NCBI GenBank assembly: GCA_965262615.1
Contig: OZ253545.1
Location: forward strand, 1,115,113-1,179,112
DNA: 64,000 bases
Origin: Alphaproteobacteria bacterium
GTDB taxonomy: Bacteria; Pseudomonadota; Alphaproteobacteria; GM7ARS4; G965262615
Reading direction: 5' to 3'
Shown: positions 1 through 45,352 of the stretch, one piece after another
Numbering within the stretch: position 1 is the first letter of the stretch
Layout: every line of letters starts with the position of its first letter
Translations under genes and position numbers: made by a program
The notes under the pieces: generated by a model
What the model was told of the DNA's origin: nothing
Seen by the model: only the letters and a program-made list of their open reading frames with translations
Databases searched by the model: none

Positions 1-877
1 GGAAGATGCTCTGACGCTGGAGCAGTTGGCGCAGCAGGAATCCGATGATGAGGTGTTGCGGGAGGTGGCGGAATCCTTGTTGCCGCTGCATGGCGAATTA
101 ATGCAGGCGCGGTTTTTGACCATGATGGAGGGCGAGGCTGACCATCGGGATTGTTTCGTTGAGATTCATGCGGGCTCCGGCGGCACAGAGGCACAAGACT
201 GGGCGGAGATGTTGCTGCGCATGTATATGCGCTGGGCGAATCGCCGTGATTTTGCCTGTGATTTCATTGAGAACAATGCCGGACAAGAAGCCGGCATCAA
301 ATCGGCAACCATTCGCATTGATGGTGAGTATGCCTATGGCTGGCTGAAGCGGGAGTCGGGGGTTCATCGCTTGGTGCGGCTCTCGCCGTTTGATTCCGCC
401 ATGCGCCGTCATACCAGTTTTGCCTCAATCAAATGCTATCCGGTGATTGATGACTCCATTGATATTGTCATTGAGGATAAAGATTTACGCATTGACACCT
501 ATCGCGCTTCGGGCGCGGGCGGACAGCATGTCAACAAAACCGACAGTGCGGTGCGGATTACCCATTTGCCCACATCGCTGGTGGTGCAGTGTCAAAATGA
601 TCGCTCGCAGCATCGCAACAAGGCGGCGGCGATGACCATGCTCAAAGCCAAACTGTTTGAGCTGGAACTGCAAAAGCGCGAATCAGAAAAACAAGCCGGC
701 AGACAGGCGGAAAAGGACATCTCGTGGGGCAATCAAATTCGCTCCTATGTGCTCCATCCCTATCGCATGATCAAAGACCTGAGAACTCACCACGAGAGCG
801 GCAACACCGATGCGGTATTAGGTGGCGAAATTGATGCCTTCCTGCAGGCATCTCTTACCGCCCAGCTGGAGTCATGA
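1..877 (+). CDS. prfB: Peptide chain release factor 2 (RF2), 5'-truncated at window edge
   Basis: Reading frame is open from nt 2. Contains the GGQ motif region ([24 protein letters not shown]) and an RF2-type C-terminal domain. The N-terminal part, including any programmed frameshift site, lies outside the window. Confidence 0.9.
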
Positions 878-2203
878 GGATAAATTGATTTCATTCAAAA
901 CTTTTTGAGCTTCGGCATAACCTTGTTTGGCAGATTCCTTTAGCCATTTCAACGCTTCTTTAACATCCTGCGTTACACCCTCGCCTTTGAAATACACTCC
1001 ACCCAGAAGATATTGAGCTTTGGCAAGACCTTGTTCAGCAGCTTTTTTGTACCAATTGAACGCCTCTTTTTGATCCTGTGCTACACCCTCGCCATCGAAA
1101 TAAATCACACCTAGATTATACTGGGCTTCATCCAATCCTTGTTCAGCAGCTTTTTTAATCCACTTGACTGCTTCTTTTTGATTATGCGTCACAGCCTCGC
1201 CTTTGTGATACATCACACCTAGATTATATTGTGCTTCGGCATGACCTTGCCCAGCAGCTTTTTCAAACCACTTAACTGCTTCTTTTATATCCTGTGTCAC
1301 ACCCTCGCCATTGAAATAAGCCAAGCCTAGATTACATTGGGCTGGAACATGACCTTGCTGGACAGCTTTTTTATACCAATTGACTGCTTGGGTTGTATCT
1401 TTCGTAATACCATCGCCTTCATGATAAACCACACCAAGATTGTATTGGGCTTCGACAATACCTTGTTCAGCAGCTTTTTTGTACCAATTGAACGCTTGGG
1501 CTTTATCCTGTGCCACACCCTTGCCATTGGTATAAAACACCCCTAGATTATATTGTGCTTCGGCAAGACCTTGTTCAGCAGCTTTTTCAAACCACTTGAT
1601 TGCTTTTGTTTGATCTTGCGTCACACCATCGCCATTGGCATAAAACACCCCTAGATTACATTGGGACTCGGCATGACCTTGTTCAGCAGCTTTTTTGTAC
1701 CATTTCGCCGCTTTTTTATAATCTTGCGTCACTCCTTCACCCTTGGCATACATGATACCAAGATTGCATTGGGCTTTGGCATAACCTCGTTGGGCAGCTT
1801 TTTCAAACCATTTGGCAGCTTCGTTGTAATTCTTAATAGAAACACATTCTAAACCGTAGTTGAAATACCCCTGTGGAGAGCCAAAAAACAAACCCTCTAT
1901 AAATAAAACCAAATTTTTAATGCCAGTAGGAATGTCAGCATCTATGTTATTTGTCATTAGTTGCAACAGTTTAATAATTTTGTGGGGAAATCTAGCAATG
2001 CCAAAGAGGACAATCGCAAAGATTCCCAATTCTACTAACAATTCTTCCAGCTTATTCACTATTAAGCCAAAAGCGAAAAGCAATACACAGATGCCAACTG
2101 CCCCTACACAGAGACAAAGTAACATCGCAAGGGCTTTCTTCCAATTGCGAGGCGCGTACTCTTTGATGAATTCTAATATGATTTTCAAATTAGAATCAGC
2201 CAT
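872..2203 (-). CDS. Sel1-like repeat (SLR) protein with N-terminal membrane domain (two predicted TM helices, FFGSPxGYFxYGxEC motif) and about 9 Sel1 repeats
   Basis: Repeated ~36-aa units AxAQxNLGxMYxxGxGVxQDxxKAxxWxxKAAEQG are typical of Sel1/TPR-like repeats. The N-terminal architecture is shared with ORF 3511..4620. Confidence 0.85.
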
Positions 2204-2295
2204 GCACTGGACATACCATACTTGCCCCCCCTCCGTCCATGTTTTTCACAACACTGAGGCGATTAGGCGGCGACATTGACGAATTCCTGCAAGCA

Positions 2296-3495
2296 TCACT
2301 CACTGAGCAGCTGAAGTAAAGCTTCTTGGGCTGGAGCAAGTCCTTGCTCGGCAGCTTTTTGATACAATTCCATGGCTTTTTTCTTATTCTTTTCTAATCC
2401 CCCATAACCATCTTCATACATGAGACCAAGATTGAATTGTGCTTGGGCATACCCTTGATTGGCAGCTTGTTGCCACCAAAACACCGCTTTTTTTATATTC
2501 TCCTTCAATCCCCCCTCACCTTTGCCATACATCAGACCAAGAGAGGTTTGGGCTGAGGCAAATCCTTGCTCGGCAGCTTGTTGCCACCATTCCACCGCTT
2601 TTTTCTTATTCACCTTCACCCCCAGCCCGTTGTAATACATTATACCAAGATTGTTTTGGGCTTGGGTATACTCTTGTTGGGCAGATTTTTGATACAATTT
2701 CAACGCTTCTTCCATATCCCGCTTCAATCCCCCTTCGCCGTTTTGATACATCACACCAAGGTTGTTTTGGGCTGGAGCAAATCCTTGGTCGGCAGATTTT
2801 TGATACAATTCCAACGCTTTTTCATCATCTTGCGTCACCCCATAACCGTTGGAATACATCACACCAAGATTGTATTGAGCTTCGGCATGTTTTTGTTGGG
2901 CAGCTTTTTGATACCATTGCACCGCCTTTTCATAATCCTGCGTCACTCCATAACCGTTGGCATACATCACACCAAGATTGGATTGGGCTTCGGTATTCTC
3001 TTGCTCGGCAGCTTTTTGATACCAATACACCGCTTTTTCATAATCCTGCGTGACACCTATGCCATTTTCATACATCACACCAAGATTGTATTGAGCTTCG
3101 GCATGTTTTTGTTGGGCAGCTTTTTGATACCATTGCACCGCCTTTTCATCATCCTGTGTCACTCCCCAACCATTGTCATACATCACACCAAGATTGTTTT
3201 GGGAATCGGCATGACCTTGTTCAGCAGATTTTTGCCACCATTGCACCGCCTCTTCATCATCCTGCGTCACCCCATCACCGTTGAGATACATCCAACCAAG
3301 CTCTGCTTGAGATTCGGCATCCCCTTGTTTGGCAGATTGCAATATCTCATAGTGGGAGTCTGATAAGGCATCATTCGCCGCGCTCAAGGAAAAACATGTC
3401 ATGACAATGGCGAACAAAAACGCCGTGCGACTCACACGCCCCGCCGAGATATTTGCTTTATGCCAATTCATCCAATCACTATATCCCTCGTCCAT
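2296..3495 (-). CDS. Secreted Sel1-like repeat protein (signal peptide plus about 9 Sel1 repeats)
   Basis: Sel1 consensus repeats. N-terminus MDEGYSDWMNWHKANISAGRVSRTAFLFAIV; the true start is probably the internal ATG at 3471 (MNWHK), because the upstream codons coincide with a TTGCAA-N17-TATAGT promoter. Confidence 0.85.
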   Translation of the reverse strand: MDEGYSDWMNWHKANISAGRVSRTAFLFAIVMTCFSLSAANDALSDSHYEILQSAKQGDAESQAELGWMYLNGDGVTQDDEEAVQWWQKSAEQGHADSQNNLGVMYDNGWGVTQDDEKAVQWYQKAAQQKHAEAQYNLGVMYENGIGVTQDYEKAVYWYQKAAEQENTEAQSNLGVMYANGYGVTQDYEKAVQWYQKAAQQKHAEAQYNLGVMYSNGYGVTQDDEKALELYQKSADQGFAPAQNNLGVMYQNGEGGLKRDMEEALKLYQKSAQQEYTQAQNNLGIMYYNGLGVKVNKKKAVEWWQQAAEQGFASAQTSLGLMYGKGEGGLKENIKKAVFWWQQAANQGYAQAQFNLGLMYEDGYGGLEKNKKKAMELYQKAAEQGLAPAQEALLQLLSE

Positions 3496-3506
3496 GTTTT
3501 TGCAAC
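3472..3506 (-). promoter_or_regulatory. Sigma70-like promoter (TTGCAA-N17-TATAGT) ending 6 nt before the ATG at 3471; predicted leaderless transcript
   Basis: Read directly from the sequence. The same TTGCAA/TTGTGA-N16-17-TATAGT/TATAAT/TATGGT-N6-ATG arrangement recurs at 5676..5709, 7055..7088, 13078..13110 and 13675..13707. Confidence 0.5.
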
Positions 3507-3510
3507 ACTG

Positions 3511-4620
3511 TCATAATCTTTCTTTGATTTTATTCAAGGCTTCTTGAGCATCGCCATGACCTTGCTCGGCGGCTTGTTGCCACCATTCCATCGCTTTTTC
3601 CGTGTCTTGCGGGACACCCTCGCCAGTGAAATAAATGATGCCCAGATAGAACTGAGATTGGGTAAAACCTTGCTGGGCGGCTTTGGTAATCCATTGTGCC
3701 GCCTGCCGATCATTTGCTTCCACACCGTAGCCATCGTAATAAGCCACGCCCAGATTATGCTGAGCGAAAACAAAACCCTGTCCAGCCGCTTTTTTGAACC
3801 ATTTCACGGCTTGTGTTTGATCCCTCGTAATGCCATCACCATTGGCATACGCCATACCGAGATTATGCTGGGCGAGAACAAAACCCTGTCCAGCCGCTTT
3901 TTTATACCACCTGACGGCTTCTTTTTGATTCTGCGCGATGCCATCACCATTGGCATACGCCACAGCGAGATTGTGTCGGGCGAGAACAAAGCCTTTGTGG
4001 GCGGCTTTTGTGTACCATTTGACGGCTTCTTCTTGATCCTTCGTAATCCCATCACCGTTGGCATACGCCACGCCGAGATTGTATTGAGCAGCGCCAAGAT
4101 TTTGCTCCGCCGCTTTTGTGTACCACTTGACGGCTTGTGTTTGATCCTTCATAATCCCATAGCCATTGTGATAAGCCACACCCAGATTGAATTGGGCTTG
4201 GGCAAGACCTTGTTCAGCAGCTTTTTGAAACCATTTGCCAGCTTCGGTGTCATTCTGGCTCAAAAGACATTCCACACCGTATTGAAAATACCCGCGCGGC
4301 GAGCCGAAAAACAAACCCTCCACGAAGAAAAGCGATTTTTTAATGGAAGTTGCCATGTCATCATGTGACATCGGCGGCAATGATTGAATCATGGCGGGGG
4401 AAAACGCGGCAACGAGAAAGAGACAATTCAACAACAATCCCAAGACTTCTGGCAGTCTTCCCAGCCCATCCGTTGCCGCCATAAGGAGCAGAACAGGAAA
4501 ATTGCAACAAATAAGTCTTGCAAGAGCCTCCGACAAATCGCGAGGCAGTTGTTCTTTGATGAATTCTAATGTGATTTTGGTATCAGAAGCAATCATGCGC
4601 CGGACATACCACGACTGCAC
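3511..4620 (-). CDS. Sel1-like repeat protein with N-terminal membrane domain (paralog of 872..2203)
   Basis: Sel1 repeats plus the shared motif [23 protein letters not shown]. Likely start is MIASDTKITLEF (ATG at about 4596), preceded by the conserved sequence GGTATGTCCGGCGC-ATG. Confidence 0.85.
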   Translation of the reverse strand: MQSWYVRRMIASDTKITLEFIKEQLPRDLSEALARLICCNFPVLLLMAATDGLGRLPEVLGLLLNCLFLVAAFSPAMIQSLPPMSHDDMATSIKKSLFFVEGLFFGSPRGYFQYGVECLLSQNDTEAGKWFQKAAEQGLAQAQFNLGVAYHNGYGIMKDQTQAVKWYTKAAEQNLGAAQYNLGVAYANGDGITKDQEEAVKWYTKAAHKGFVLARHNLAVAYANGDGIAQNQKEAVRWYKKAAGQGFVLAQHNLGMAYANGDGITRDQTQAVKWFKKAAGQGFVFAQHNLGVAYYDGYGVEANDRQAAQWITKAAQQGFTQSQFYLGIIYFTGEGVPQDTEKAMEWWQQAAEQGHGDAQEALNKIKERL

Positions 4621-4711
4621 TTTTCAATCAATATTTTGACAACACCAAGAGGCGGTATTAGGTGGCGACATTGACAAATTTTTGCAGGCATCTTTGACTG
4701 CCCAATTGGAG

Positions 4712-5675
4712 TCATGATGATTTTTTAACTACACTCAAGGCTCTTCGAGCTGGGACATAACCTTGTTCATCAGCTTTTTCAAGCCACTTGACACCTTCTT
4801 TTTGATCCTGCGTCACACCCTCGCCTTTACCATAAGCCACACCTAGATTATATTGAGCTGGGGCATCACCTTGTTCGGCGGCTTTTCGCCACCACCGCAC
4901 CGCCTCCTCTTTATCCTTATCCACACCGTTGCCATTAAGATAAGCCAAGCCAAGATTGTATTGAGCTTTGGCATAATTTTGTTTGACAGCTTCTTTGTAC
5001 CATCGCACTGCTTTCTCTTCATCCTTACCCACACCATTGCCATTTTCATACATCACGCCAAGATTATATTGAGCTTGAACAATTCCTTGTTGGGCAGCTT
5101 CTTGCCACCACCGCACGGCTTCTGTTTGATTCTGCGTCACACCCTCGCCATTGAAATACATCACACCGAGATTATATTGTGCTTCGGCATGACCCTTCTG
5201 GGCTGCGCTTTTGAAGTGCTGCAACGCTTTTACCTTATTTGGCTTCATCACTATCACCACTGTAATACCTCATACCAAGCCTGAATGCTTCTTCGGCTTC
5301 GTATTTATTTTTCTTGTCTCGCATGAATAAAAGCTCGCCAAGAATTGGAATTCCGATGACTAAAACAATACTAATTGCAAAACCTGACAAAAGAACGAGC
5401 AGAACAACAAACCCCCAAAAAATGAAGGATGCATCCATATGTGCCACCAGCCAGTTTTCTTGCAAACTTGACAGAGCATCCGCCAATGCACTAATAGCTA
5501 GGGATGAAAAATAAACAATGGGAAGAAAGAATACCGCAAGCCAAAAAAAGTTATGCCAATACCTTGGCAGGTTCTTCATGAAGGCTGAAACTTCAGATTC
5601 TCTAAGGTCACCTATTACTTGATGCTCTGGACGCACAGAGGCTACAAAACCGCTAGTATTTTCATTCTCACCCAT
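4712..5675 (-). pseudogene. Sel1-like repeat gene split by a single-base frameshift (membrane N-terminal ORF 5235..5675 plus Sel1 C-terminal ORF 4712..5260)
   Basis: The two ORFs overlap by 26 nt in different frames. Removing one A from the homopolymer run in CCAAATAAGG near 5240 restores a continuous Sel1 repeat (GDSDEANKVKALQHFKSAAQKG). A perfect TTGCAA-N16-TATAAT promoter lies at 5682..5709. Confidence 0.6.
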
Positions 5676-5770
5676 CCTCCTATTATATCCCCGTCCATAT
5701 TTTTTGCAACACTTTGCGGGGATTCATCACAAGGGGTGGAGCTGGCGAGGGCGCAATTGATGCCTTGGCA

Positions 5771-7078
5771 TCACTCACTGTACAGTTGAAGTAAAGCCTC
5801 TCGGGCATCGGCATGACCTTGCTCAGCAGCTTTTTGCCACCATTTCACCACTTTTTCATAATTTCGCGCCACCCCCTCACCGTTGGCATACATCTCACCA
5901 AGATTGAATTGGGCTTCAGCATTCCCTTGTTTGGCAGCTTTTTGATACCACTGCACCGCTTTTTTCTGATCCTGCGTTACCCCCTCACCTTCGTCATACA
6001 TCATACCAAGATATAATTGTGCTAGGGCATAACCTTGTTTGGCAGCTTTTTGCCACCATTCTATCGCTTTTTCCATATTCTGCCTCAATCCCCCCTCACC
6101 ATCGGCATACATGACAGCAAGCATGAATTGGGCTTTGGCGACACCTTGTTGGGCAGCTTGTTGTAACCAGAACACCGCTTTTCCCTTATCCTGTGCCACC
6201 TCCTCACCGTTCACATACATGACACCAAGAGCTGTTTGAGCTAGGGCATCACCTTGTTGGGCAGCTTTTTGCCACCATTCTATCGCTTTTTCCTTATCCT
6301 GCCTCAATCCCCCCTGCCCTTTGCCGTACATGAGACCAAAATTATATTGGGCTTCAGCATTCCCTTGTTCAGCAGCTTTTTGCCACAATTCCACCGCTTT
6401 TTCATAATCTTGCGTCACTCCCTTACCGCCATGATACATCAAGCCAAGATTAAATTGAGCATCAGCATAATCTTGTTGGGCAGCTTTTGTGTACCACTTG
6501 ACCGCTTCTTTTTTATCCTGCGTCACACCATAGCCATTGGCATAAGCCACACCAAGATTATATTGAGCTGGAGCATCACCTTGCTCAGCTGCTTTTTGAT
6601 ACCATTGCACCGCTTTTTCATAATTTTGCGTCACCCCCTTACCGGACTCATACATGACACCAAGACCGAATTGGGCTTCGGCAATACCTTGCTCGGCAGC
6701 TTTTAGCCACCATTCCGCCGCTTTTTCATAATTCTGAGTCACCCCATAACCATTGGCATACATGACACCAAGAGAAAATTGGGCTTGAACAATATCTTGT
6801 TGGGCAGCTTTTTGATACCAGAACATCGCTTTTTCATAATCCTGCGTCACCCCCTCACCGTTGAAATACATAAAGCCAAGATTGTGTTGGGCTTCGGCAT
6901 CCCCTTGTTTGGCAGATTGCAATATCTCATATTGCTCATCTGATAACGCTACCGCCACTGAGCTCAAGGCAGGGAATGTAATAAAGACAGTGACAAGCAA
7001 GAACGCCGCGCGACTCACACGCCGCGCCGATATCTTTGTTTCGTTCCAATTCATCCAATCACTATACCCCTCGCCCAT
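5771..7078 (-). CDS. Secreted Sel1-like repeat protein (about 10 repeats)
   Basis: Sel1 consensus repeats and the MGEGYSDWMNWNETKISARRVSRAAFLL N-terminus. Probable true start at 7054 (MNWNE), downstream of the TTGCAA(7083-7088)-N16-TATAGT(7061-7066) promoter. Confidence 0.85.
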   Translation of the reverse strand: MGEGYSDWMNWNETKISARRVSRAAFLLVTVFITFPALSSVAVALSDEQYEILQSAKQGDAEAQHNLGFMYFNGEGVTQDYEKAMFWYQKAAQQDIVQAQFSLGVMYANGYGVTQNYEKAAEWWLKAAEQGIAEAQFGLGVMYESGKGVTQNYEKAVQWYQKAAEQGDAPAQYNLGVAYANGYGVTQDKKEAVKWYTKAAQQDYADAQFNLGLMYHGGKGVTQDYEKAVELWQKAAEQGNAEAQYNFGLMYGKGQGGLRQDKEKAIEWWQKAAQQGDALAQTALGVMYVNGEEVAQDKGKAVFWLQQAAQQGVAKAQFMLAVMYADGEGGLRQNMEKAIEWWQKAAKQGYALAQLYLGMMYDEGEGVTQDQKKAVQWYQKAAKQGNAEAQFNLGEMYANGEGVARNYEKVVKWWQKAAEQGHADAREALLQLYSE

Positions 7079-7116
7079 CTTTTTGCAACACTTAGCGACA
7101 CTGTGTCACCAATGGT

Positions 7117-7736
7117 GCATGAAACATTTGACCCTTTGTCTTTTATCTTCGTTTTTTCTATCGTCTGTGGCATTGGCGGAGTCCTCGTCGCCGTTTGATG
7201 CCATGGGGGTGCGTGATGTGATGGCATCGGCGCGGGCTGGCGACAAAGAGGCGCAACATGCCCTCGCCATGCGCTATTATCACGGACGCGGCATCAAGCA
7301 GAATCTGGAAAAGGCCTATGAGTGGCACACCAAAGCCGCCATGCAAGATCACAGCGAGTCGCTGAACGAATTGGGATGGATGCACCTCAACGGTGAGTTC
7401 GTGCCGCAAGACGAAGACATCGCCATCGCCTTTTATGAGCGTTCGGCGGCGTTGGGCAATCCTCATGGGTGTGCGCATCTGGCGGAGATTTTTGCCATGC
7501 GCGGCGACTTCATGAACGCCACCATGCACCTGATGATGGCCAGCGACCCCACCGCAAGCCGCTATGTCATGAGCATGGGACACGCCGACCCAGAACTCCT
7601 CAAAATGCAAATCATGGATGAACTCACCCCCGAGCAGCTCATCACCGCTCGCCACAACGCCATGACATGGCAGCATCAACGGCGCGACACCATGAACAAT
7701 CAATCGCCCCTGCCCTTTGCGGTGAGCTTTCAATAA
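7117..7736 (+). CDS. Divergent Sel1-like repeat lipoprotein/secreted protein
   Basis: Signal peptide MKHLTLCLLSSFFLSSVALA, then degenerate Sel1 repeats (DKEAQHALAMRYYHGRGIKQNLEKAYEWHTKAA...). Start chosen at the first ATG with a signal peptide; the ORF-track start at 6861 overlaps the converging Sel1 gene. Confidence 0.6.
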
Positions 7737-7875
7737 ATTATCGCTCATTCGCCCCGCTCCCCTTCACCGGGGGGCGAGGCGCGCGGCTTGTTTTGATGAT
7801 CGCTCACATGAATTGCCACACAGAGCGTGGCGCGCGAGGCATTGTTTTAATGATCACTTTTTGCTACAGTCCTTC

Positions 7876-9022
7876 TATGGATGGTCAGACACATGTCTCA
7901 CTGCGTCAAAAAATTGACCACATCCGCACGATCCTGTCGCAAGAATATCAAAGAAAACACAAAGTCCCCTGGATTATCGCCTATTCGGGCGGTAAAGACA
8001 GCACATTTCTTTTGCATCTTGTCATGGAGTGCCTGCACAATGTGCCTGAAGAAAAGCGGGTGCGTCCTGTTTATGTTGTGTCCAATGATACCCTTGTGGA
8101 AAGTCCGCTTGTGAGTGAGCATTTACACAAAAGCATGAAGAAAATCAAATCATCGGCAAAAAAGCTTAATCTGCCCATCACCGCCACAATCACAGAGCCA
8201 GCACATTCCGATTCCTTTTGGGTGCAAGTCATTGGCAAAGGATACCCAACGCCCAATCGTATGTTTCGCTGGTGCACCGACCGTCTTAAAATCAAGCCCT
8301 CAACGGAATTCATCAAAAAGCAAGTGAGCCAAAGCGGCAATGTGATTTTACTCATGGGGACACGCAAATCAGAAAGTGCCTCAAGAGCCGCATCCATCAA
8401 TCGCCACAAACGCAAAGGCAACAGCATTTACAGTGACCACAATTCGCTGGAGCATTGCAAGGTCTTGTCCCCCATCGTGGATTTTGAGGATGATGAACTA
8501 TGGACATTTCTTTTGCAATCCAAGCCCCCCTGGGGAGGCAGCTATCGCAATTTGATTACATTGTATCGCAATGCGCGCGGCGGCGAATGCCCCACCGTCT
8601 TGAGCAAAACCGAAGCCCCAGGGTGCGGTTCGGCATCGCCGCGTTTTGGCTGTTGGGTCTGCACCGTGGTGGAAAAGGATAGCAGTCTTGAAGGATTGGT
8701 GGATTCGGGCTTTGAGCAGTTTGAGGCATTGGTGGATTTTCGCTTATGGCTACTGGAAATAAGAAGTGACCCCACATATCGCCTCGCCATTGACCGCAGA
8801 GGCAAAATCCGCACGAGAAAAGACGGCACAATCATGCCAAGAGCCTTTACAATTAAGGCGCGTGAGAAAATTTTGCAAAAACTATTGGAACTGCAAGAAG
8901 AAATGGCGATGAAATTAATTACGCCCCAAGAGATTGAAACAATTCGCGAAATATGGCAAAAAGACAAAGTGATGTTGAACAAGTCACCACACAAAAACAC
9001 ACGCCCCGTGTGTGTCATCTAA
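7876..9022 (+). CDS. PAPS-reductase superfamily protein, DndC/SspD-like (PP-loop ATP pyrophosphatase with C-terminal cysteine cluster)
   Basis: PP-loop motif IAYSGGKDST, followed by a Cys-rich segment GGECPTV...PGCGS...FGCWVC typical of DndC-type DNA sulfur-modification proteins. AT-richer than surrounding genes. Start chosen at MDGQTHV (7876) to avoid overlap with the upstream gene. Confidence 0.6.
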
Positions 9023-9040
9023 TCAGTCGGAGTATTCCAA

Positions 9041-10825
9041 ATGACGACAGAAAATGACGACTTGACAATCAGAGAAATGCCTGTTGGGGAAATTCTCGGA
9101 GGAAAATTTCTCGTTCCAGAATATCAGCGCGGCTATCGTTGGAGTAGAGACGAGGTTATAGAACTTCTTGAAGACATTCAAGATGCCCTCAATGATGGCG
9201 ATGACTACTATTTCATTGGCTCTTTCAATTTGATTAACGATAATCCAAACAAACCTTTTGAGGTTGTTGATGGGCAACAAAGATTGACAACAATTTCATT
9301 AATCGCAAGAGAAGCGCGCTTTTTGTTGCAAAAAGAGACTTCTAATTTGGGAGAAGAAGGGGTGGTTCATCTTATGTCAGCCCTTCTTAAAATTTCAGAC
9401 GAGGTTGTTCACTTTGATCGAAAAAGTGAACGAGAAGGATTTGAAAAACTTATGAAAGGCGACGCTACGAGCCACGACCAAATGTCAGTTGCTTCGAAAG
9501 AAGTAAAAGAATTTATAAAAAGAAAAAAAGAAGAGACCTCTCATGTAGGAAATACCGATGAGCTTGTTAGGTATATGAATTACCTTCTCAACAATGTGAA
9601 GGTAGTTTTTATCGTTGTTAAAGATGAAAAGATTGCATACAAAATTTTTGAAGCTCTTAATCTTCGGGGCAAACCTCTTGGCACGATAGATTCAATAAGA
9701 ATTTTTGTGTTCCGAAATATCAACAGGGAAAAATTTGAGTACTGCTTCAAATTGTGGGAAGACTTGGAGAATACCATGAGAATGACCCACAAAAGAGTTG
9801 ATGACCTTATGACTCAAATGTTTAATACATTCTTTGAGTGTCATAGAGGCATTAGAATTGAGGAAAATCACTTGTTCTCTAAAGTGGAGAATTCCTTTAA
9901 GCAGGAAGCACAAGATGAAAAAGAAAAAGAAAAAGAAAGCCAGAAAATATATCTGGATTTTTTTGAGAAAATCGTATCTATAGATGGTGGTAGCAAGAAA
10001 AATTTTCCTAACTATTACTTGGCTTCTGTTAAGCATGACCATGACCTGTGGAAAAAATTGGATGTGCCGATTTTTTTCAGAGAAGCTTTGTGCGGAACTA
10101 AAATATGGGATGGAAATAAAATATGCAGAGCTCCCATTGCTGCTATGTTTCATGCGTTAAATATGCCAAAACCTCGCATTACAACAGAACAAGCTAACAA
10201 TATTATGCATGACATGTACAGCTTAATTTCTCGCCTTGAAGCGTTGGGAATTCTTCGCGGGCAAAATGTATCAAAATGCAATTCTCGGCTAGCTGCTTTT
10301 GCTAAAAAACTCATCTATACAGAAGAAAATTTTGAGACAATCGCTCAAGAACTTTTTCAAGGCATCCATGACCAAGTTGATGGGGTCATGTCTGATAAAG
10401 ATTTTAGAGTTGAAATGACGGCTAATAAAAAAGTCAGAAGAGACAAAGCAAAAAGATTATTGCGGGATATTGAATTTGCCCGTAACAAGCAACTTGCCAA
10501 TGTGGGTAAAGAAATTCACATTGAACACATTTTGCCTCAAAATCCAAATGAAAAAGATTGGAAAGATTTTTCAGTGGAAGATAGGGATTACCACACAAAT
10601 CGCATTGGTAATTTTGCTTTGTTATTGGATGTTGATAATCAAAGAATCGGCAATAAGCCTTTTGCTGATAAAGTGCTTGTATACGCCGAAAACACGATAA
10701 CAACAACGAATGAATTAGCCAAAAACACAGATTGGACAAAAGATGATATTGATGAACGCAGTAAGCGGCTGGCAAAAGAGATTGCTGGTGTATGGAATTT
10801 CCATTACTACAACCCCTCACCCTGA
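9041..10825 (+). CDS. DUF262 (ParB-like NTPase) plus DUF1524 (HNH/His-Me nuclease) protein, GmrSD/SspE-like modification-dependent restriction enzyme candidate
   Basis: N-terminal DUF262 signature (YQRGYRW...FIGSF...VVDGQQRLTT) and C-terminal DUF1524-like HxxH...N motif (IHIEHILPQNP...NRIGNFALL). Markedly AT-rich, with poly-A/T tracts. Confidence 0.65.
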   Translation: MTTENDDLTIREMPVGEILGGKFLVPEYQRGYRWSRDEVIELLEDIQDALNDGDDYYFIGSFNLINDNPNKPFEVVDGQQRLTTISLIAREARFLLQKETSNLGEEGVVHLMSALLKISDEVVHFDRKSEREGFEKLMKGDATSHDQMSVASKEVKEFIKRKKEETSHVGNTDELVRYMNYLLNNVKVVFIVVKDEKIAYKIFEALNLRGKPLGTIDSIRIFVFRNINREKFEYCFKLWEDLENTMRMTHKRVDDLMTQMFNTFFECHRGIRIEENHLFSKVENSFKQEAQDEKEKEKESQKIYLDFFEKIVSIDGGSKKNFPNYYLASVKHDHDLWKKLDVPIFFREALCGTKIWDGNKICRAPIAAMFHALNMPKPRITTEQANNIMHDMYSLISRLEALGILRGQNVSKCNSRLAAFAKKLIYTEENFETIAQELFQGIHDQVDGVMSDKDFRVEMTANKKVRRDKAKRLLRDIEFARNKQLANVGKEIHIEHILPQNPNEKDWKDFSVEDRDYHTNRIGNFALLLDVDNQRIGNKPFADKVLVYAENTITTTNELAKNTDWTKDDIDERSKRLAKEIAGVWNFHYYNPSP

Positions 10826-11190
10826 GGGTGATTCTAGCAAATCTAATAACGCTTGAATTTTTATTGGTTTTTTCATGAGATGGAGCGTCATGCCGCGAGG
10901 TGATTCCACCGAATTTCGTGATTCCATCGCCTCGCCGCTGAGCATAATCAGATGGGTGATGCCCAGCGCGCGCCACTCATCTGCTGGTGGGGTGCGTGCG
11001 GCGTGGGAGGCTGTCTGGCGGTCGTAAATGAGAGTCACTCGTTTGTGCGGCGGCGGTGCGGTGAGCTCCTTCTTTTGCTTGACCTCTATTTTTGCTATGA
11101 CTTGCTCTATGATGCGTTTGAGTTCCCGCAAGAACAATGCGTCACTGACATCCAGAATCACAAGGTGATGGCGACTTTTCATATTTTTCA
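10817..11190 (-). CDS. Possible single-domain response-regulator receiver (CheY-like) protein
   Basis: C-terminal ...GITHLIMLSGEAME...HLMKKPIKIQALLDLLE resembles the receiver-domain alpha4-beta5-alpha5 region. Its start overlaps the divergent L,D-transpeptidase start, so the call is weak. Confidence 0.3.
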
Positions 11191-11704: not shown

Positions 11705-11766
11705 TGCGTCTTTCCCCGCACCCCGTCCAATTGCAACAAAGCGATGGAATATGGTAGGATAAGGGT

Positions 11767-34401: not shown

Positions 34402-34705
34402 GATTGCAAGCTCAGCTATCCGATAAAATCAGCTGAATATCGCGCAATCTTTATTGACGAGGCGAGTCTTTTGCCAGTCATGTTTTGGGATGCCTCACCT
34501 TTTGGGATGCCTCATCGGCCTGCCGTCCCTTCGGATAAGGGACATACATGCTTTGCGGCATATTTTTGCGTCCTTCCTTCAGGGTCTTGGTGTTCATGAA
34601 GCGACAATGACCCATAACCGCCATGATTGCAAGCTCAGCTATCCGATAAAATCAGCTGAATATCGCGCAATCTTTGTTGATGGGGTGAGTCTTTTGCGAG
34701 CCATG
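34283..34705 (+). repeat. Tandem duplication, period 223 bp (two ~200-bp copies, about 97% identical), covering the fdsGB 5' end and intergenic region
   Basis: GATGCCTCATCGGC(T/C)TGCCGTCCCTTCGGATAAGGGACATACATGC... recurs at 34283 and 34506. Confidence 0.9.
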
Positions 34706-35999: not shown

Positions 36000-37652
36000 A
36001 TGAACAACAAAAAACTCATCGCATGGATTGCCATCACCGTCATTGCCCACACGGGATGGACAATGGGCGTGGCTCATGCCGATGAAACGGTAGATTTGCA
36101 CCAATTGATGGAAGACGCTCAACAAGGCGATGCCGATGCCCAATTCTATCTTGGGTTGATGTATGGCAATGGCGCGGGTGTCACGCAGGATTATGAGGCA
36201 GGCATCTATTGGGTCACAAAAGCCGCGGAACAATGGCATGCCGATGCCCAATACGCTCTTGGGGTGTTTTATAAAAATGGCGATGGTGTGGCACAGAATT
36301 ATGAGAAAGCCGTGTATTGGTATCAAAAAGCCGCGGCGCAAGGAAATGCCGATGCCCAATACGATCTTGGGTTGATGTATGGCAAGGGCGCAGGTGTCAC
36401 GCAGGATTATGAGGCAGGCATCTATTGGTTCACAAAAGCCGCAGAGCAAAACCATGCTGATGCAATAGAAATACTCAAGGAATTAGGCATGGCTCATGAA
36501 ACGGACGAATTGCACCATTTGATGGAACGCGCCCAGCAAGGCGACTCCGTATCCCAATTCTATCTTGGGACGATGTATGAACAGGGCAGAGGTGTCTCTC
36601 GAGATGTTGGACAAGCGGTGCAATGGTATCAAAAAGCCGCCAAGCAAGGATTTGCCCAAGCCCAATACAACCTTGGGTGGATGTATGAAAATGGCACAGG
36701 TGTTCCGCAAGATGATGAACAGGCGGTAGAATGGTATCAAAAAGCCGCGGCACAAGGACTTGCCAATGCTCAAAACAATCTGGCGGAGATGTATCGCGAG
36801 GGCAGAGGTGTTCCGCAGGATGATGAGCAAGCGTTGGAATTGTATCTAAAATCCGCCGAGCAAGGATATGATCGCGCTCAAACCACTATGGGCTGGATGT
36901 ATGACAATGGCATTGGTGTTGTGCAAGATTATGAGCAAGCCGCGCAATGGTTCACAAAAGCCGCGGTGCAAGGATTTGCCCGAGCTCAAAGTAATCTTGC
37001 TATGATGTATCTTCATGGCAGAGGTGTTCCGCAGGATTATGAGCAAGCCGCGCAATGGTGGAGAAAAGCCGCAAGGCAAGGCTATGCCAAGGCTCAATTC
37101 AATCTTGGGCTGATGTATCACAATGGAGATGGGGTTGCACAGGACGATGAGCAAGCTTTGTATTGGTGGGAGAAAGCCGCAAGACAAGGAAATAAAGATG
37201 CAATAGAAGCTCTCAAAATATTAGGCATGGCTGATGAAACGGACGAATTGCACCAATTGAGAGAACGCGCCGAGCAAGGCGATGCCGATGCCCAAAACTA
37301 TCTTGGTGTGATGTATAACACTGGCATGGGTGTGACGCAGGATAAAAAAGAAGCCGTGGAATGGTTCAAAAAATCCGCCGAACAAGGAAATGCCCTCGCC
37401 CAAGCCAATCTTGGAGTGATGTATAGGGATGGGATGGGTGTCACGCAGGATGATGAGGAAGCTGTGGAATGGTGGAAAAAAGCCGCAGAGCAAGAAAATG
37501 CCGTAGCCCAATACAATCTTGCTGTGATGTATGGCAAGGGAATCGGCGTGGCACAGAGTGATGAAAAAGCCGTCTATTGGTTCACAAAAGCCGCCAAACA
37601 AGGCGATGTTGATGCAATAGAAGTTCTCAAGAAATTAGGCATCACCGACTGA
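36000..37652 (+). CDS. Secreted Sel1-like repeat protein (550 aa; three tandem modules each ending DAIE-LK-LGM)
   Basis: Signal peptide ...IAHTGWTMGVAHA and about 13 Sel1 repeats. The last module is about 95% DNA-identical to 13380..13625. Confidence 0.85.
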   Translation: MNNKKLIAWIAITVIAHTGWTMGVAHADETVDLHQLMEDAQQGDADAQFYLGLMYGNGAGVTQDYEAGIYWVTKAAEQWHADAQYALGVFYKNGDGVAQNYEKAVYWYQKAAAQGNADAQYDLGLMYGKGAGVTQDYEAGIYWFTKAAEQNHADAIEILKELGMAHETDELHHLMERAQQGDSVSQFYLGTMYEQGRGVSRDVGQAVQWYQKAAKQGFAQAQYNLGWMYENGTGVPQDDEQAVEWYQKAAAQGLANAQNNLAEMYREGRGVPQDDEQALELYLKSAEQGYDRAQTTMGWMYDNGIGVVQDYEQAAQWFTKAAVQGFARAQSNLAMMYLHGRGVPQDYEQAAQWWRKAARQGYAKAQFNLGLMYHNGDGVAQDDEQALYWWEKAARQGNKDAIEALKILGMADETDELHQLRERAEQGDADAQNYLGVMYNTGMGVTQDKKEAVEWFKKSAEQGNALAQANLGVMYRDGMGVTQDDEEAVEWWKKAAEQENAVAQYNLAVMYGKGIGVAQSDEKAVYWFTKAAKQGDVDAIEVLKKLGITD

Positions 37653-37682: not shown

Positions 37683-38114
37683 TCAAAAAAGTGCCGTGGC
37701 AACCATTCCCAACAGAGCCACCATCACGCTCACAAGAACAACAATCACCCGCGTCGCAAAGAGATTGAAAGCCTGCAACAACACATTGATATCTTCCTTA
37801 ATTTCAGTTCGCGCCTGAGCGATTTGAGTTTCCAGTTTGGCGATTTGAGTTTCCAGTTTGGCGTTATTTTCATTATTTTCAGCTCGCGCCTGAGCGATTT
37901 GAGCTTCCAGTTTGGCGATTTGAGCTTCCAGTTTGGCGATTTTGGTCTCCAGTTTGGCGATATCTTCCTTCGTGGCAAAATTCTTGCCTTGCTCTTTGAT
38001 GGTGGCAACATCCACCTTCAGAGCAACCACATCCGCTTTGAGGGCGACCACATCATCATACAAGCCATTCGCCTTGCGATGTTCGGTTGGTTTTTGTTCC
38101 GTCTGGATAGTCAT
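37683..38114 (-). CDS. Small coiled-coil protein with C-terminal TM anchor (DUF1640/CCDC90-like, tail-anchored)
   Basis: ...ALKADVVALKVDVATIKE...FATKEDIAKLE(IAKLEAQ)n...RVIVVLVSVMVALLGMVATALF. The ATKxDL/I motif and C-terminal TM resemble DUF1640. Start set at MTIQTEQ because the ORF-track extension is the promoter. Confidence 0.55.
   Translation of the reverse strand: MTIQTEQKPTEHRKANGLYDDVVALKADVVALKVDVATIKEQGKNFATKEDIAKLETKIAKLEAQIAKLEAQIAQARAENNENNAKLETQIAKLETQIAQARTEIKEDINVLLQAFNLFATRVIVVLVSVMVALLGMVATALF
37804..37957 (-). repeat. In-frame 21-bp tandem repeats (about 5 copies; heptad IAKLE(A/T)Q) nested within a ~75-bp repeat
   Basis: GATTTGAG(T/C)TTCCAGTTTGGC repeated on the plus strand. 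Confidence 0.85.
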
Positions 38115-38183
38115 GGTGGTTAGAATATGTGCATTTGCAGGGTTTGTCAATGCCAAGATGCCTTACGGTCATTGCAGATGACC
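38115..38183 (-). promoter_or_regulatory. Conserved promoter TTGACA-N17-TATTCT-N7-ATG plus upstream palindrome GGTCATTGCAGATGACC (38167..38183)
   Basis: Promoter and palindrome are conserved upstream of 4 of the 5 DUF1640-like paralogs (41657..41735, 45649..45715, 46249..46300). Confidence 0.5.
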
Positions 38184-39553: not shown

Positions 39554-41077
39554 GTGGAAAAATTCTTTGAATACATTTTCCCAAAAAAAATCAGTACGAG
39601 GTCGCGAGTCTGTCTCTTATTCCTTGTACCCGCATTGTCCATTTTAATCCTTCTTCCATCAATTCTTGAAGCTTGGAATCAACCTCCATTGCCAAGCCAA
39701 TTTTTCTATTCTTTAATTACGGTAACAGGATTTCTGCTTTTTGCTTTGATTTTATCATTAATAAAAGATTTTGAAAAATCATCCGAGCCAACGCGTGACA
39801 TAGCTAAAGACTTACATGATATGCTTCCTGAATTGGCGTTGTATATCACCGAACAATTGGTATCGGATAACATAAAAAATATGCAAAAGAAAGAAGCAAC
39901 AAGACAATTTAATCTTGGTGTCAAACATTTATTTGGCAAGGGTGTTAAAAAAAATGCACAAAAAGCATTCCTCCACTTTGAAGCAGCCGCCCAACAAGGG
40001 GATGCCTACGCCCAATTCAATCTTGCTTTGATGTATAGGAATGGCAAAGGAGTGGCACAAAATGATAAGAAAGCCCTGTATTGGTATCAAAAAGCCGCCC
40101 AACAAGGGGATGCTAGAGCCCAATTCAATCTTGCTTGGATGTATCATGAGGGCAAAGGAGTGGCACAGAATGATGAGAAAGCCCTGTATTGGTATCAAGA
40201 ATCCGCCCAACAAGGGGATGCTAGAGCCCAATTCAATCTTGCTTTAATGTATCATGAGGGCAAAGGAGTGGCACAAAATGATGAGAAAGCCCTGTATTGG
40301 TATCAAAAAGCCGCCCAACAAGGGAATGCCAAAGCCCAATTCAATCTTGCTTGGATGTATGATGAGGGCAAAGGAGTGGCACAGAATGATGAGAAAGCTG
40401 TGTATTGGTATCAAGAATCCGCCCAGCAAGGGGATGCCAAAGCCCAATTCAATCTTGCTTGGATGTATGATGAGGGCAAAGGAGTGGCACAAAATGATAA
40501 GAAAGCACTATATTGGTATCAAGAATCCGCACAACAAGGAAGTGCCAGAGCCCAAATCAGTCTTGGGATGGCTTATGTTGGCGGAAAAGGTATTTCACAG
40601 GATTATCATGAGGCGATGCAATGGTTCAAAAAAGCCGCAGAACAAGGGAGTACCGATGCCCAAAACAATATTGGCTTTATGTATGCCACTGGCATGGGTA
40701 TTAAACCAAATGAGAAAAAAGCAGTGCATTGGCTCACAAAAGCTTCAGAGCAAGGATTTGCCATAGCCCAATTCAATCTCGCTGTGGTGTATGAAAGTGT
40801 GACACAGAATGATCAAAAAGCGAAGCACTGGTATCAAAAAGCCGTCCAGCAAGTTAGTGACGAAACCAAATTCACTCAGCAAGAAGAGCAGGAGAGGATC
40901 AAAGAAGCGGAACAAGAAGGGGATGCCAATTCCTTGTATCTTCTTGGCGTGAGATACGCCATTGGCGAAGAAGTCACGCGAGATTATGAAAAAGCGGCGC
41001 ACTGGTTCACCCAAGCATCTCAGCTGAACTTTATTCAAGCCACGCGAGCTCTTGAATTGCTGAAAAAAGTCAAATAA
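39554..41077 (+). CDS. Sel1-like repeat protein with N-terminal TM segments (AQFNLAxMYxEGKGVAQNDxKA variant)
   Basis: About 11 Sel1 repeats. Confidence 0.85.
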   Translation: MEKFFEYIFPKKISTRSRVCLLFLVPALSILILLPSILEAWNQPPLPSQFFYSLITVTGFLLFALILSLIKDFEKSSEPTRDIAKDLHDMLPELALYITEQLVSDNIKNMQKKEATRQFNLGVKHLFGKGVKKNAQKAFLHFEAAAQQGDAYAQFNLALMYRNGKGVAQNDKKALYWYQKAAQQGDARAQFNLAWMYHEGKGVAQNDEKALYWYQESAQQGDARAQFNLALMYHEGKGVAQNDEKALYWYQKAAQQGNAKAQFNLAWMYDEGKGVAQNDEKAVYWYQESAQQGDAKAQFNLAWMYDEGKGVAQNDKKALYWYQESAQQGSARAQISLGMAYVGGKGISQDYHEAMQWFKKAAEQGSTDAQNNIGFMYATGMGIKPNEKKAVHWLTKASEQGFAIAQFNLAVVYESVTQNDQKAKHWYQKAVQQVSDETKFTQQEEQERIKEAEQEGDANSLYLLGVRYAIGEEVTRDYEKAAHWFTQASQLNFIQATRALELLKKVK

Positions 41078-41101: not shown

Positions 41102-41312
41102 ATGGACATGGCTCATACTGATTTGCAACAATTGATGGAGCGCGCTCAACAAGGCGATGCCCTCAGCCCAAAACAGTCTGGGGTGCATGTATGAACAAGG
41201 CAGAGGTGTCACGCAGGATTATGAAGAAGCCGTGCGATGGTTCAAAAAAGCCGCGAGGCAAGGAAATAAAGCTGCCATAAAATCCCTCAAAATTTTAGGC
41301 ATGACCGACTAA
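41102..41312 (+). pseudogene. Degenerate fragment of a Sel1-like repeat gene (internal stop), ending ...KILGMTD*
   Basis: MDMAHTDLQQLMERAQQGDA...(stop)...RGVTQDYEEAVRWFKKAARQGNKAAIKSLKILGMTD is homologous to the module boundaries of the 36000..37652 gene. Confidence 0.6.
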
Positions 41313-43254: not shown

Positions 43255-43308
43255 CCGTGAAGAATTTTGGTATTGACAAATTCTGCAAATTCACATATTC
43301 TCACCATC

Positions 43309-43590
43309 ATGACGACAGAGACGAAGCAAAAAAAAGAATATCTCACGGTGACGGCAAAAACCTATCGCTTGAAGAGCGGTCGCGCTCTTCTCATGGTGGA
43401 TTTTACCACTCATGAAAGTGTCGCCGCCCTGCAAAGTGACGATGCTGTCAGTTTGTTGCGGGGAGATATCGCTCAACTGCGTGAAGAAATTGAGAGGGCG
43501 AAAAATGAAGTGATCTATGCCATCAATCGCGCCGCTGTGGGAGTCATTGTTTCTTGTGTGATCGTTATGGTGGCAATCATTCTTAAGTGA
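43309..43590 (+). CDS. DUF1640/CCDC90-like small coiled-coil tail-anchored protein
   Basis: Paralog. Preceded by TTGACA-N17-TATTCT-N7-ATG. Confidence 0.5.
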   Translation: MTTETKQKKEYLTVTAKTYRLKSGRALLMVDFTTHESVAALQSDDAVSLLRGDIAQLREEIERAKNEVIYAINRAAVGVIVSCVIVMVAIILK

Positions 43591-44348: not shown

Positions 44349-44871
44349 CCTGAATGCTACAGCCCCTCGTCATGTAATAGCGCGGGCTATCATCATCGTC
44401 TCTTGCCAACAAGCCAAAGCGTTGCGGGTCATAGGCGTAGGAAATGGTCTGTTCGCGCGGGCGATAGCGATAGGGAAACTGACGAATATACATTGATTGA
44501 ATGTCATGAGCCTCTTGTTCTCGCATTGCATAGCGCACGCGCTCGCTGTAGTCACCAAAGCGTTCCTGATGCTTATTGCGGTGCTGCATATGATGCACCA
44601 GTTCATGCACCAAAATAGAGACTGCGCACACATTCATCGCCCGTCCCATATCGTCACGCAAATAAACCGTCCGCTCCTCAATGTGATAAAATGCCACCAC
44701 CGCACACCGTCGTCCCCCACACGCCATCTCTTGCAACGAATCCGATGACGCAAAAACCACCGAAGGGGTCTCCGAAGGCATGTCATAGCCAGAGACGCTC
44801 GCCACCCACAGCAATAACGAGGCAACCATATCTGTCAAAGAACTGACTCCAGAGTGAATCATGATACTCAC
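44338..44871 (-). CDS. Putative secreted HExxH zinc metallopeptidase-like protein
   Basis: N-terminal hydrophobic segment and a single HELVHHMQH motif. The family was not recognised. Confidence 0.3.
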   Translation of the reverse strand: MSIMIHSGVSSLTDMVASLLLWVASVSGYDMPSETPSVVFASSDSLQEMACGGRRCAVVAFYHIEERTVYLRDDMGRAMNVCAVSILVHELVHHMQHRNKHQERFGDYSERVRYAMREQEAHDIQSMYIRQFPYRYRPREQTISYAYDPQRFGLLARDDDDSPRYYMTRGCSIQVKP

Positions 44872-44981
44872 CTATAGTCTCAATGACAAGATGAATGAGG
44901 CATGAATTGGGAAAGAATTTCAAGCTGTGAGATTCTTGGCAAAGTGTTTAATTCTTAATGGGAATATGGTAAGCTGCCACC

Positions 44982-45352
44982 ATGAGAACCACCCGCCTTA
45001 TCACATGGATTGCCATTGTCGTCATTGCTCATACGGGCTGGATGCCGAGCGTGGCTCATGCCGAAGAAGATGCCATAGCCCAATACAATCTTGGGGTGGA
45101 TTATTACAACGACAAGGACTACCTACAAGCAGCGTATTGGTGGAAAAAAGCCGCCGAACAAGGGAATGCCAATGCTCAAACCACTCTGGCGTTGATGTAT
45201 TACGATGGCACAGGTGTCACACAGGACGGTCTGCAGGCGGCGTATTGGTTCAAAAAAGCCGCAGAACAAGGACATAAAGGGGCGATAAAAGCCCTCAAGA
45301 AGGAAATAAAGATGCGATAAAAGCCCTCAAAACATTAGGCATGACCAACTAA
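44982..45352 (+). CDS. Short secreted Sel1-like repeat protein, C-terminus disrupted by a 32-bp duplication
   Basis: Signal peptide IAHTGWMPSVAHA and 2 Sel1 repeats. The GCGATAAAAGCCCTCAA direct repeat causes a premature stop at 45320; removing the insertion restores ...KALKTLGMTN*. Confidence 0.6.

Follow-up and report, generated by a model that had tools for sequence, protein, structure and literature searches.

The window analysed here is a 64,000-nucleotide stretch of contig OZ253545.1 from an alphaproteobacterium (positions 1,115,113 to 1,179,112 of the forward strand). Between positions 872 and 45352 it holds a lineage-specific, fast-turnover family of enzyme-free Sel1-like repeat (SLR) proteins with an α/α-solenoid fold. 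The region contains 16 SLR loci, comprising 14 intact open reading frames (ORFs) of 112–550 amino acids, one frameshifted gene and one C-terminal remnant. Summed over these loci there are approximately 109 repeats, which account for 16.5 kb of the 44.5 kb (37% of the DNA), and the SLR fraction reaches 68% across the first 16.5 kb. The proteins consist of a targeting element followed by 2–12 near-consensus repeats of 36 amino acids and nothing else. Loci were detected by a greedy ORF map with Pfam scans and then by a six-frame search with a hidden Markov model (HMM) of the repeat built from the window itself. The latter added two loci that Pfam does not detect, 7119–7736(+) and 41136–41309(+), and found no repeats in the window past 45317. 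The initial annotation, which was made from the letters and ORFs alone, had counted about 18 genes or fragments of 112–550 amino acids; the dense expansion and the size range are both correct, while the exact number is 16 loci, or 17 ORF pieces. A control set of 80 loci centred on leuS, drawn from other Alphaproteobacteria and totalling 1.39 Mb, contains four Sel1 repeats, a density roughly 800-fold below that of the window.

The assignment of the repeats to the Sel1/SLR type, as first proposed, is supported by profile scores, consensus and fold. The Pfam Sel1 model (PF08238) scores 59.7–471 bits in 14 ORFs (cut-off 30.7), whereas the tetratricopeptide repeat models TPR_1, 2, 7, 8, 11, 12 and 16 reach approximately 17–40 bits, mostly under their own cut-offs. 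With the TPR models so far below the Sel1 scores, a generic 34-residue TPR identity is ruled out. The SMART SLR consensus A3-L7-G8-Y11-G14-G16-D20-A24-A31-A32-G35 (as quoted in PMC10868440) is reproduced in 77 full 36-residue repeats, with frequencies of 0.94 for A3, 0.96 for L7, 0.87 for G8, 1.0 for Y11, 0.96 for G14 and 0.96 for G16 in the first half, and of 0.68 for D20 (with a further 0.29 Asn), 0.91 for A24, 0.88 for A31, 0.95 for A32 and 0.82 for G35 in the second. Around 11 positions are hypervariable (2, 5, 9, 12, 13, 15, 18, 21, 26, 33 and 36). The 77-repeat profile contains no conserved cysteine position and the repeats are therefore not of the Hcp type.

In the AlphaFold model of the protein encoded at 872–2203, residues ~110–443 form regular helix pairs with a pLDDT above 90, and the N-terminal domain is helical but of low confidence (pLDDT 43–68). 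The top Foldseek matches to this model are all SLR crystal structures (LceB, Oxalobacter formigenes SLR proteins, EsiB, LpnE and HcpC). No enzymatic or other extra domain is found in the SLR proteins by Pfam, and the NCBIfam equivalog cut-offs are unmet for MerG (204–219 bits against 350), AlgK (118–123 against 700), ExoR (92–110 against 450) and MotX (101–114 against 330). PADLOC-DB gives short spurious matches to the SLR proteins, none of which passes its threshold (best PtuA). A whole-protein search with one SLR gene returns approximately 7,000 matches of 45–58% identity from many sources, including a protein of Nibrella viscosa and proteins of metagenome-assembled genomes (MAGs) labelled Planctomycetia and Nitrospinota. 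As the repeats are near-consensus, these matches tell nothing about the origin of the family.

Inspection and hydropathy divide the family into the two predicted localization classes that had been proposed, with seven signal-peptide loci and eight membrane-anchor loci. The Sec pattern of the former (n-region, h-region and AXA-like cleavage site) is recognized by these two means only, and examples of the predicted cleavage sites are SVAHA/D, SAVA/ED and SVALA/ES. Two of these genes are on the minus strand, at 2296–3495(−) (9 repeats, Sel1 376 bits, likely true start the ATG at 3471 giving MNWHKAN...) and at 5771–7078(−) (10 repeats, 398 bits, likely start ATG 7054); for the second, 6ok3, an SLR protein of O. 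formigenes, gives the best PDB match by sequence (E 5.8e-115). A divergent, predicted secreted member of 205 amino acids with about three repeats, recognized by the six-frame HMM and its translation, lies at 7119–7736(+) and has the signal peptide MKHLTLCLLSSFFLSSVALA. The gene at 13078–13650(+) has 3 repeats and is by sequence comparison a mosaic of three paralogues, and that at 13675–14565(+) has 6 repeats (214 bits). The largest member, at 36000–37652(+), encodes 550 amino acids with 12 repeats (471 bits) arranged as three modules (3+6+3), each closed by an AIExLKxLG cap. The smallest, at 44982–45320(+), encodes 112 amino acids with 2 repeats (59.7 bits) behind the signal peptide IAHTGWMPSVAHA. 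The one-repeat C-terminal remnant at 41136–41309(+), identified by the six-frame HMM (independent E 2.6e-20) and translation, is similar to the module ends of the 36000 gene; it looks like the C-terminus of a signal-peptide-class protein and would then be an eighth locus. The IAHTGW...VAHA signal peptide that was first taken to characterize the class is present in only three of its seven genes.

The membrane class is typified by the gene at 872–2203(−), which encodes 443 amino acids with 9 repeats (Sel1 351 bits, hydropathy and AlphaFold). Its N-terminal domain, of the type here called class A, comprises an amphipathic helix and two transmembrane (TM) helices, with long helices at residues 21–48 and 51–71 of the model, and a 15-residue stretch corresponds to the first SLR helix. 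A second class-A gene at 3511–4620(−) (7 repeats, 242 bits, likely start ATG 4596) has an N-domain alignable to that of 872–2203 and to P0001, and has orthologues that are ~90% identical in contigs L083 and L084 of sister strains (see below). The frameshifted gene at 4712–5675(−) was recognized from the DNA, with Sel1 scoring 191 bits in the 3′ piece, and from hydropathy. One extra nucleotide near 5255 (GGTGAT[A]GTGATG) interrupts it, and the pieces 4712–5260, with 4–5 repeats, and 5235–5675, the N-terminal two-TM part, join as one gene. The remaining genes are at 11767–13053(+) (428 amino acids, 8 repeats, two TM segments; 330 bits and hydropathy), 15307–16536(+) (409 amino acids, 8 repeats, internally homogenized; 324 bits), 16605–17348(+) (247 amino acids, 4–5 repeats, a single TM segment; 189 bits), 20464–22020(−) (518 amino acids, 12 repeats; 454 bits, hydropathy and flanking charge) and 39554–41077(+) (507 amino acids, 10 repeats; 334 bits). 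The anchor of the 20464–22020 protein is one TM segment followed by a Lys-rich stretch.

An N-terminal two-TM domain, which the initial annotation gave to the whole class, is found in six of the eight genes as a bilobed hydrophobic region near the N-terminus (loops of 8–22 residues) with the repeat array directly after it; the other two have a single segment. Hydrophobic segments exceed the threshold in seven genes, 16605 being assigned by eye, and all eight share a motif ahead of the first TM segment (hydrophobic-x-E/D-hydrophobic-hydrophobic-P-x-x-W). By the positive-inside rule, a heuristic, the array would face the cytoplasm in five to six of the eight. The motif FFGSPxGYFxYG-EC, to which the membrane domain had been tied, is confined to two genes (872 and 3511). 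It is excluded from the membrane domain because it aligns with the G-x-P-E-G-Q-Y-x-L-G with which the first repeat of the other members begins, and it corresponds to the first SLR helix (H110–122 in the AlphaFold model). The suggestion that the membrane domain defines a distinct subfamily holds for the class-A N-domain, which has three matches in 1.84 billion representatives by a full HMMER profile search, all from the same lineage, and one match in a word-indexed search of 5.8 billion proteins.

The family grows by tandem gene duplication that includes the promoter, by intragenic duplication of one or two repeats and by recombination between paralogues, and it loses members by decay. The mosaic gene 13078–13650 draws on three parents: it is near-identical to the 13675 gene upstream and through its first ~130 nt, 55 nt of signal-peptide DNA (13169–13223) are 96% identical to 45010–45064 in the 44982 gene, and the last two repeats (13381–13596, 216 nt) are 92–96% identical to 37392–37607 in the 36000 gene. 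The 13675–14565 gene in turn duplicates, in tandem, the 5′ region of its neighbour at 13078, promoter region included, with exact matches between 13062–13105 and 13659–13702 and between 13116–13156 and 13713–13753. Within genes, two-repeat (216-nt) duplications leave exact matches of 75–80 nt, as in 2296–3495, where 2854–2933 and 3070–3149 form the longest intragenic match (80 nt). In 15307–16536 seven of the eight repeats have their nearest neighbour within the same gene, and there is an exact internal match of 75 nt. The five central repeats of 39554–41077 are mutually 89–94% identical, and Tandem Repeats Finder reports a period of 108 with 90% matches at 39987–40565. The diversification by duplication and gene conversion that had been suggested is thus borne out by the mosaic gene and by the intragenic 216-nt duplications. 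The near-identical DNA stretches that had been reported among the genes are confirmed in part (the longest exact intergenic match is 47 nt); typical gene pairs are 72–80% identical over 0.8–1.2 kb and the 108-nt units have a mean pairwise identity of 68%.

The scaffold positions of the repeat are under purifying selection, with a pooled Nei–Gojobori ratio of non-synonymous to synonymous substitution rates (dN/dS) of 0.26–0.34. At the variable positions the ratio is 1.0–1.3, a value biased upward by the choice of these positions for their variability. The GC content at third codon positions (GC3) is 0.35–0.53 in the SLR genes against ~0.5–0.66 in core genes.

Paralogues of both classes have an upstream element in common. 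Five genes have TTGCAA-16/17-TATAGT, TATAAT or TATGGT with its end 6 nt ahead of the ATG, a spacing suggestive of leaderless mRNAs. Seven more have TATGGT, TGTGGT or a close variant (TGTGAT, CGTGGT) at 11 nt from the start. The sites are at 2203–2260, 3471–3520, 5675–5715, 7054–7100, 11720–11767, 13070–13111, 13670–13708, 15260–15307, 16560–16605, 22020–22065 and 44940–44982, and the promoter seems to have been duplicated along with the gene. Four ORFs seem to begin with an odd extension (such as MxEGYSDW), and in these the promoter-like element TTGCAA-16/17-TATAGT/TATGGT stands 6 nt before an internal ATG (MNW...); in 2296–3495, for example, TTGCAA-16-TATAGT ends 6 nt ahead of the ATG at 3471. 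Since the element lies so close to the internal ATG, the extension is taken to be promoter DNA that has been read through, and the signal-peptide genes with such an extension would have mRNAs with little or no leader. A promoter scan also returned 69 sites where 26 are expected, with TTGATA-17-CATAAT recurring every 108 nt antisense to the Sel1 genes and antisense sigma-70-like matches across 900–6900 and 12200–17300. This excess was rejected as evidence of antisense transcription, as it is mainly a periodic artefact of the 108-nt repeat.

The lineage is an uncultivated, deep-branching alphaproteobacterium. Its leucyl-tRNA synthetase (LeuRS) has best matches of 52–56% identity among 185,579 species representatives (Stellaceae, Rhodospirillales and Rickettsiales MAGs), and a large protein collection yields one cluster at ~92% identity, followed by a match of 55%. 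The 11 members of this cluster come from the ENA assembly ERZ26695794 (at least six contigs of 3–10x coverage) and one Logan run (SRR33343644), the sample and run accessions of which gave no literature matches. An exact look-up of proteins of the window in public assemblies found no record of them.

Contigs of these sister strains are syntenic with the window, and comparison with them demonstrates that SLR genes at the same slots are replaced between conspecific strains while the flanks stay 92–97% identical. The flanks of contig L087 are 96.8–97.2% identical to the window, with matching DndC-like and GmrSD genes, and those of L085 are 92–96% identical. In the slots between ykuD, yggS, thiE-like/leuS and the methyltransferase gene, both contigs carry SLR genes that differ from those of the window in number, class and length, and the encoded proteins are at most 48–59% identical to any window paralogue. 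The sole family member kept between the strains is 7119–7736 (96–97% DNA identity in L085 and L087). In L082 the slot of 16605–17348 is occupied by a gene of 466 amino acids and 11 repeats instead. The relatives' contigs contain many fragmented SLR copies, and intact genes are found in the contigs of 9–10x coverage; the frameshifts in those of 3–5x coverage (L081–L084) were rejected as evidence of pseudogenization, as they may be assembly errors. The thiE-like/leuS block of the window (17358–21766) is 86% identical to L087 9398–13805 with flanks of 97% on both sides, and this suggests that the block, leuS included, is an imported recombinant segment. The thiE-like ORF itself, 17345–17932(+), scores 22.8 bits against TIGR00693 (cut-off 145), overlaps the extended leuS ORF and keeps its position in all relatives; it may be a degraded gene.

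A variable defence hotspot separates the two Sel1 clusters, and in the window (7667–10825(+)) it consists of a DndC-like gene and a GmrSD/HEC-06-like nuclease (PADLOC DndC 394 bits and HEC-06 220 bits; NCBIfam TIGR03183 357 bits, cut-off 290). The equivalent regions of the relatives contain HNH-HIT with CD-NTase and Cap15 (CBASS-like) in L085 (654–3130), HNH-HIT with Multi_ubiq, DUF6791, ThiF and BubE in L083 (4012–7137), and HNH-HIT with an AAA_15 ATPase in L084 (4864–7620). A single mobile island was considered for the SLR region and rejected, as the SLR genes are interleaved with prfB, yggS, leuS, mgtE, an aminotransferase gene, cysK and thiF.

The SLR proteins are inferred to be enzyme-free protein-binding modules whose ligand surfaces are undergoing diversification. 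The signal-peptide class would act in the periplasm or outside the cell, and the membrane class would be tethered to the inner membrane. The ligands may be proteins of a eukaryotic host or grazer, the family then forming a repertoire of ‘eukaryotic-like proteins’ as in Legionella and in amoeba and sponge symbionts. This reading is favoured, at somewhat less than an even chance, because Sel1 expansions and clusters are known in symbionts (PMC12625764, PMC8831229, PMC10868440). The TPR/SEL1 proteins of Amoebophilus are abundant and regulated through the life cycle (PMC8831229), and LpnE, EnhC and LceB act in Legionella (PMC10868440). A gene for a PagL lipid A deacylase in the window gives a further, weak hint.

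Several observations weigh against host or grazer ligands, and the host-associated or intracellular life that the initial annotation had suggested is not confirmed by the analysis. The 64-kb window contains no secretion-system genes. Genes for biotin synthesis and formate dehydrogenase are present in it together with cysK and an entire dcw cluster, so that it does not resemble the genome of a reduced endosymbiont. At least six related strains are found together in one complex metagenome (3–10x coverage), which would be unusual for an obligate intracellular symbiont. Should the membrane class face the cytoplasm, as the heuristic indicates, half of the family would have no contact with host proteins unless translocated. 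Near-consensus Sel1 arrays occur in many proteins, including those of N. viscosa, Planctomycetia and Nitrospinota, and tandem Sel1 genes are documented in a non-host role as type VI secretion system (T6SS) immunity proteins (PMC7108748). The upward bias of dN/dS at the variable positions, given above, counts on the same side.

That last role leads to an alternative that is judged unlikely, namely an immunity or decoy array against interbacterial toxins, in which each SLR protein neutralizes a different effector and orphan immunity genes accumulate through arms races between strains. In Klebsiella pneumoniae five tandem sel1 genes are located downstream of vgrG4, and Sel1E, which was modelled on Pseudomonas aeruginosa PA5087 (PDB 5jkp), is the VgrG4 immunity protein (PMC7108748). 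The swapping of gene content between conspecific strains fits such an array, as do the position of the Sel1 clusters next to a hotspot of swapping defence genes and an Imm_superinfect gene beside a Sel1 gene in L081; the two localization classes would suit toxins of different compartments. PA5087, itself a T6SS immunity protein, matches weakly here (E 3.9e-12). Its similarity is however only generic to SLRs, and the known immunity proteins are shorter than the arrays here, which run to 12 repeats. Pfam also detects no vgrG, PAAR, Rhs, CdiA or other toxin gene in the 64-kb window or in the relatives' loci, although orphan immunity arrays would need no cognate gene nearby. A role as envelope housekeeping adaptors is distinctly unlikely. 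Here the proteins would be scaffolds for peptidoglycan remodelling, polysaccharide export, motility or signalling, comparable to EnhC, AlgK, MotX and ExoR, and bacterial SLR proteins are known in such roles (PMC10868440). The best NCBIfam matches are indeed MerG, AlgK, ExoR and MotX, an L,D-transpeptidase gene (10952–11704) lies inside the cluster, genes for PBP1A and an amidase are situated just past the left end in relatives, and the retention of 7119–7736 between strains is as expected of a housekeeping member. All these family cut-offs are nevertheless missed (92–219 bits against 330–700), and 16 near-consensus paralogues are hard to fit to machine-specific roles. Housekeeping adaptors are moreover normally single-copy and conserved, whereas here the genes are replaced between flanks of 97% identity.

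It is quite improbable that the membrane class consists of single-gene sensor-effectors. In an abortive-infection-like version the SLR array would sense a phage protein and the TM hairpin perturb the cell's own membrane; in an Inc-like version a translocated hairpin would enter the host vacuole membrane and show the array to the host cytosol. The two close hydrophobic segments with the array directly behind them in six of the eight genes would suit either version, as would the nearby defence genes, the extreme turnover and the restriction of the class-A N-domain to the lineage. PADLOC gives no meaningful match to these proteins, though, and the window contains no type III or type IV secretion system gene; TM hairpins are common among ordinary membrane proteins, and the N-domain is the part of the model with low confidence. 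A largely neutral or decaying expansion, with recombination-prone repeats that proliferate and erode with little function, is very improbable. One gene is frameshifted and another reduced to a remnant, many copies on the relatives' contigs are fragmented and GC3 is low, all of which such decay could produce. Against this stand the 14 intact ORFs, the purifying selection on the scaffold (dN/dS ~0.3), the conservation of targeting elements and promoter-like sequences, and the intact genes of the 9–10x contigs, fragments in those of 3–5x being possible assembly errors. There is, finally, a small chance that the family is a two-compartment hypervariable recognition repertoire that confers immunity to incoming interbacterial toxins or phage proteins, a new ‘innate receptor’ family and not a set of host-interaction factors. 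Its arrays would be either periplasmic or tethered by a TM hairpin facing the cytoplasm, where the hairpin might itself be the effector, and recombination at fixed slots beside the defence-island hotspot would maintain the repertoire.

The Legionella SLR proteins (LpnE, EnhC, LidL and LceB), on which the favoured reading of host or grazer ligands draws, have a KAAEQG-type motif, N-terminal Sec signals and no enzymatic domain, as is the case here with Sec signals that are predicted. LceB (8sxq) has the same fold as the 872–2203 model (TM-score normalized to the target 0.88, r.m.s.d. 1.8–2.0 Å, 42% identity) and LpnE (6deh) is also a fold match. Legionella has five scattered SLR genes (PMC10868440), in contrast to the 16 loci in 45 kb with recombination between paralogues and strain-level replacement described here. 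Unlike the Legionella proteins, half of the present family is TM-anchored, and there is no Dot/Icm or other translocation system in the window. The Sel1-like proteins of O. formigenes (6ok3, 6onw, 6ork, 6ur7 and 6orc) are the best PDB matches by both sequence and fold. This organism is host-associated and belongs to the Betaproteobacteria, and thus to another lineage; its genome presumably contains many SLR paralogues, which are not known to include TM-anchored members or to be replaced slot by slot between strains. In sponge-associated bacterial MAGs Sel1 is strongly enriched relative to free-living relatives, and Sel1 gene clusters in variable genomic context have already been reported from sponge symbionts. 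The present lineage is a different one (no species representative exceeds 56% identity in LeuRS), and the membrane-anchored class and the evidence of mosaic recombination are additional. The Hcp proteins of Helicobacter pylori are likewise a secreted family of SLR paralogues from a host-associated bacterium, with HcpC (1ouv) as a fold match, but their repeats carry a disulfide-forming cysteine pair whereas those described here are essentially without conserved cysteines. The Hcp family is reported to show lineage-specific positive selection. The T6SS immunity proteins (K. pneumoniae Sel1A–E and the PA5087 family) are also small SLR-only proteins encoded in tandem, with specificity set by surface residues (PMC7108748); their genes lie directly downstream of toxin genes, and no toxin or T6SS gene is seen in the window. 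Among eukaryotic proteins, SEL1L/Hrd3 of endoplasmic reticulum-associated degradation is a membrane-anchored SLR adaptor that brings clients to a membrane machine (sequence match E ~1e-53), but it has a C-terminal anchor, is a single gene with partner-specific regions and is not hypervariable.

SLR expansions and Sel1 clusters in variable context are therefore already known. Four features extend beyond the described cases: loci packed at extreme density into a short stretch, a membrane-anchored class specific to the lineage, recombinant mosaics seen directly in the sequence, and slot-wise replacement between strains beside a defence hotspot. If the family recognizes external proteins, the ~109 repeats in 45 kb would amount to a natural collection of SLR binding surfaces at very high density, and the co-occurring strains show its repertoire being rewritten while the surrounding genome remains 92–97% identical. 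Directly testable questions are how repertoires of repeat proteins diversify (by duplication of units, recombination between paralogues and replacement at slots), whether expansions of Sel1 are a marker of host association or serve a broader arms-race function, and whether the membrane-tethered and probably cytoplasm-facing class has a role of its own. The analysis also draws attention to an alphaproteobacterial lineage found so far in one metagenome assembly and one sequencing run.

A second paralogue family consists of small proteins that combine a coiled coil with a C-terminal TM anchor and give weak CCDC90/DUF1640-like matches; its members are encoded at 37683–38156(−), 43267–43590(+), 45367–45690(−) and 45736–46248(−). 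Three of the four adjoin Sel1 genes, tandem repeats of 21 and 33 nt alter the length of the coiled coil, and 37854–38173 is 93% identical to 45988–46307. Beside the Sel1 slot downstream of leuS, 22055–23326(−) encodes an N6/N4 DNA methyltransferase fused to a C-terminal HNH nuclease; the fusion is kept at this position in most relatives, and the record for L085 has the methyltransferase domain alone.

Elsewhere in the window, a small Cas2-like gene at 47612–48010(−) (PADLOC Cas2 E 1.1e-8; Pfam under cut-off) lies within the biotin operon, flanked by bioA-like and bioD-like genes, and the window holds no CRISPR array or further cas gene. A scan of the whole window against Rfam gave no matches. 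At 34283–34711 a 223-bp tandem duplication (1.9 copies, 94% identical) extends across the junction of a formate dehydrogenase beta-subunit-like gene with an M48 peptidase/TPR gene. After the tRNA-Leu(GAG) gene at 24780–24866 comes a tandem repeat with a 72-bp unit (2.1 copies, 96% identical), at 24902–25053.

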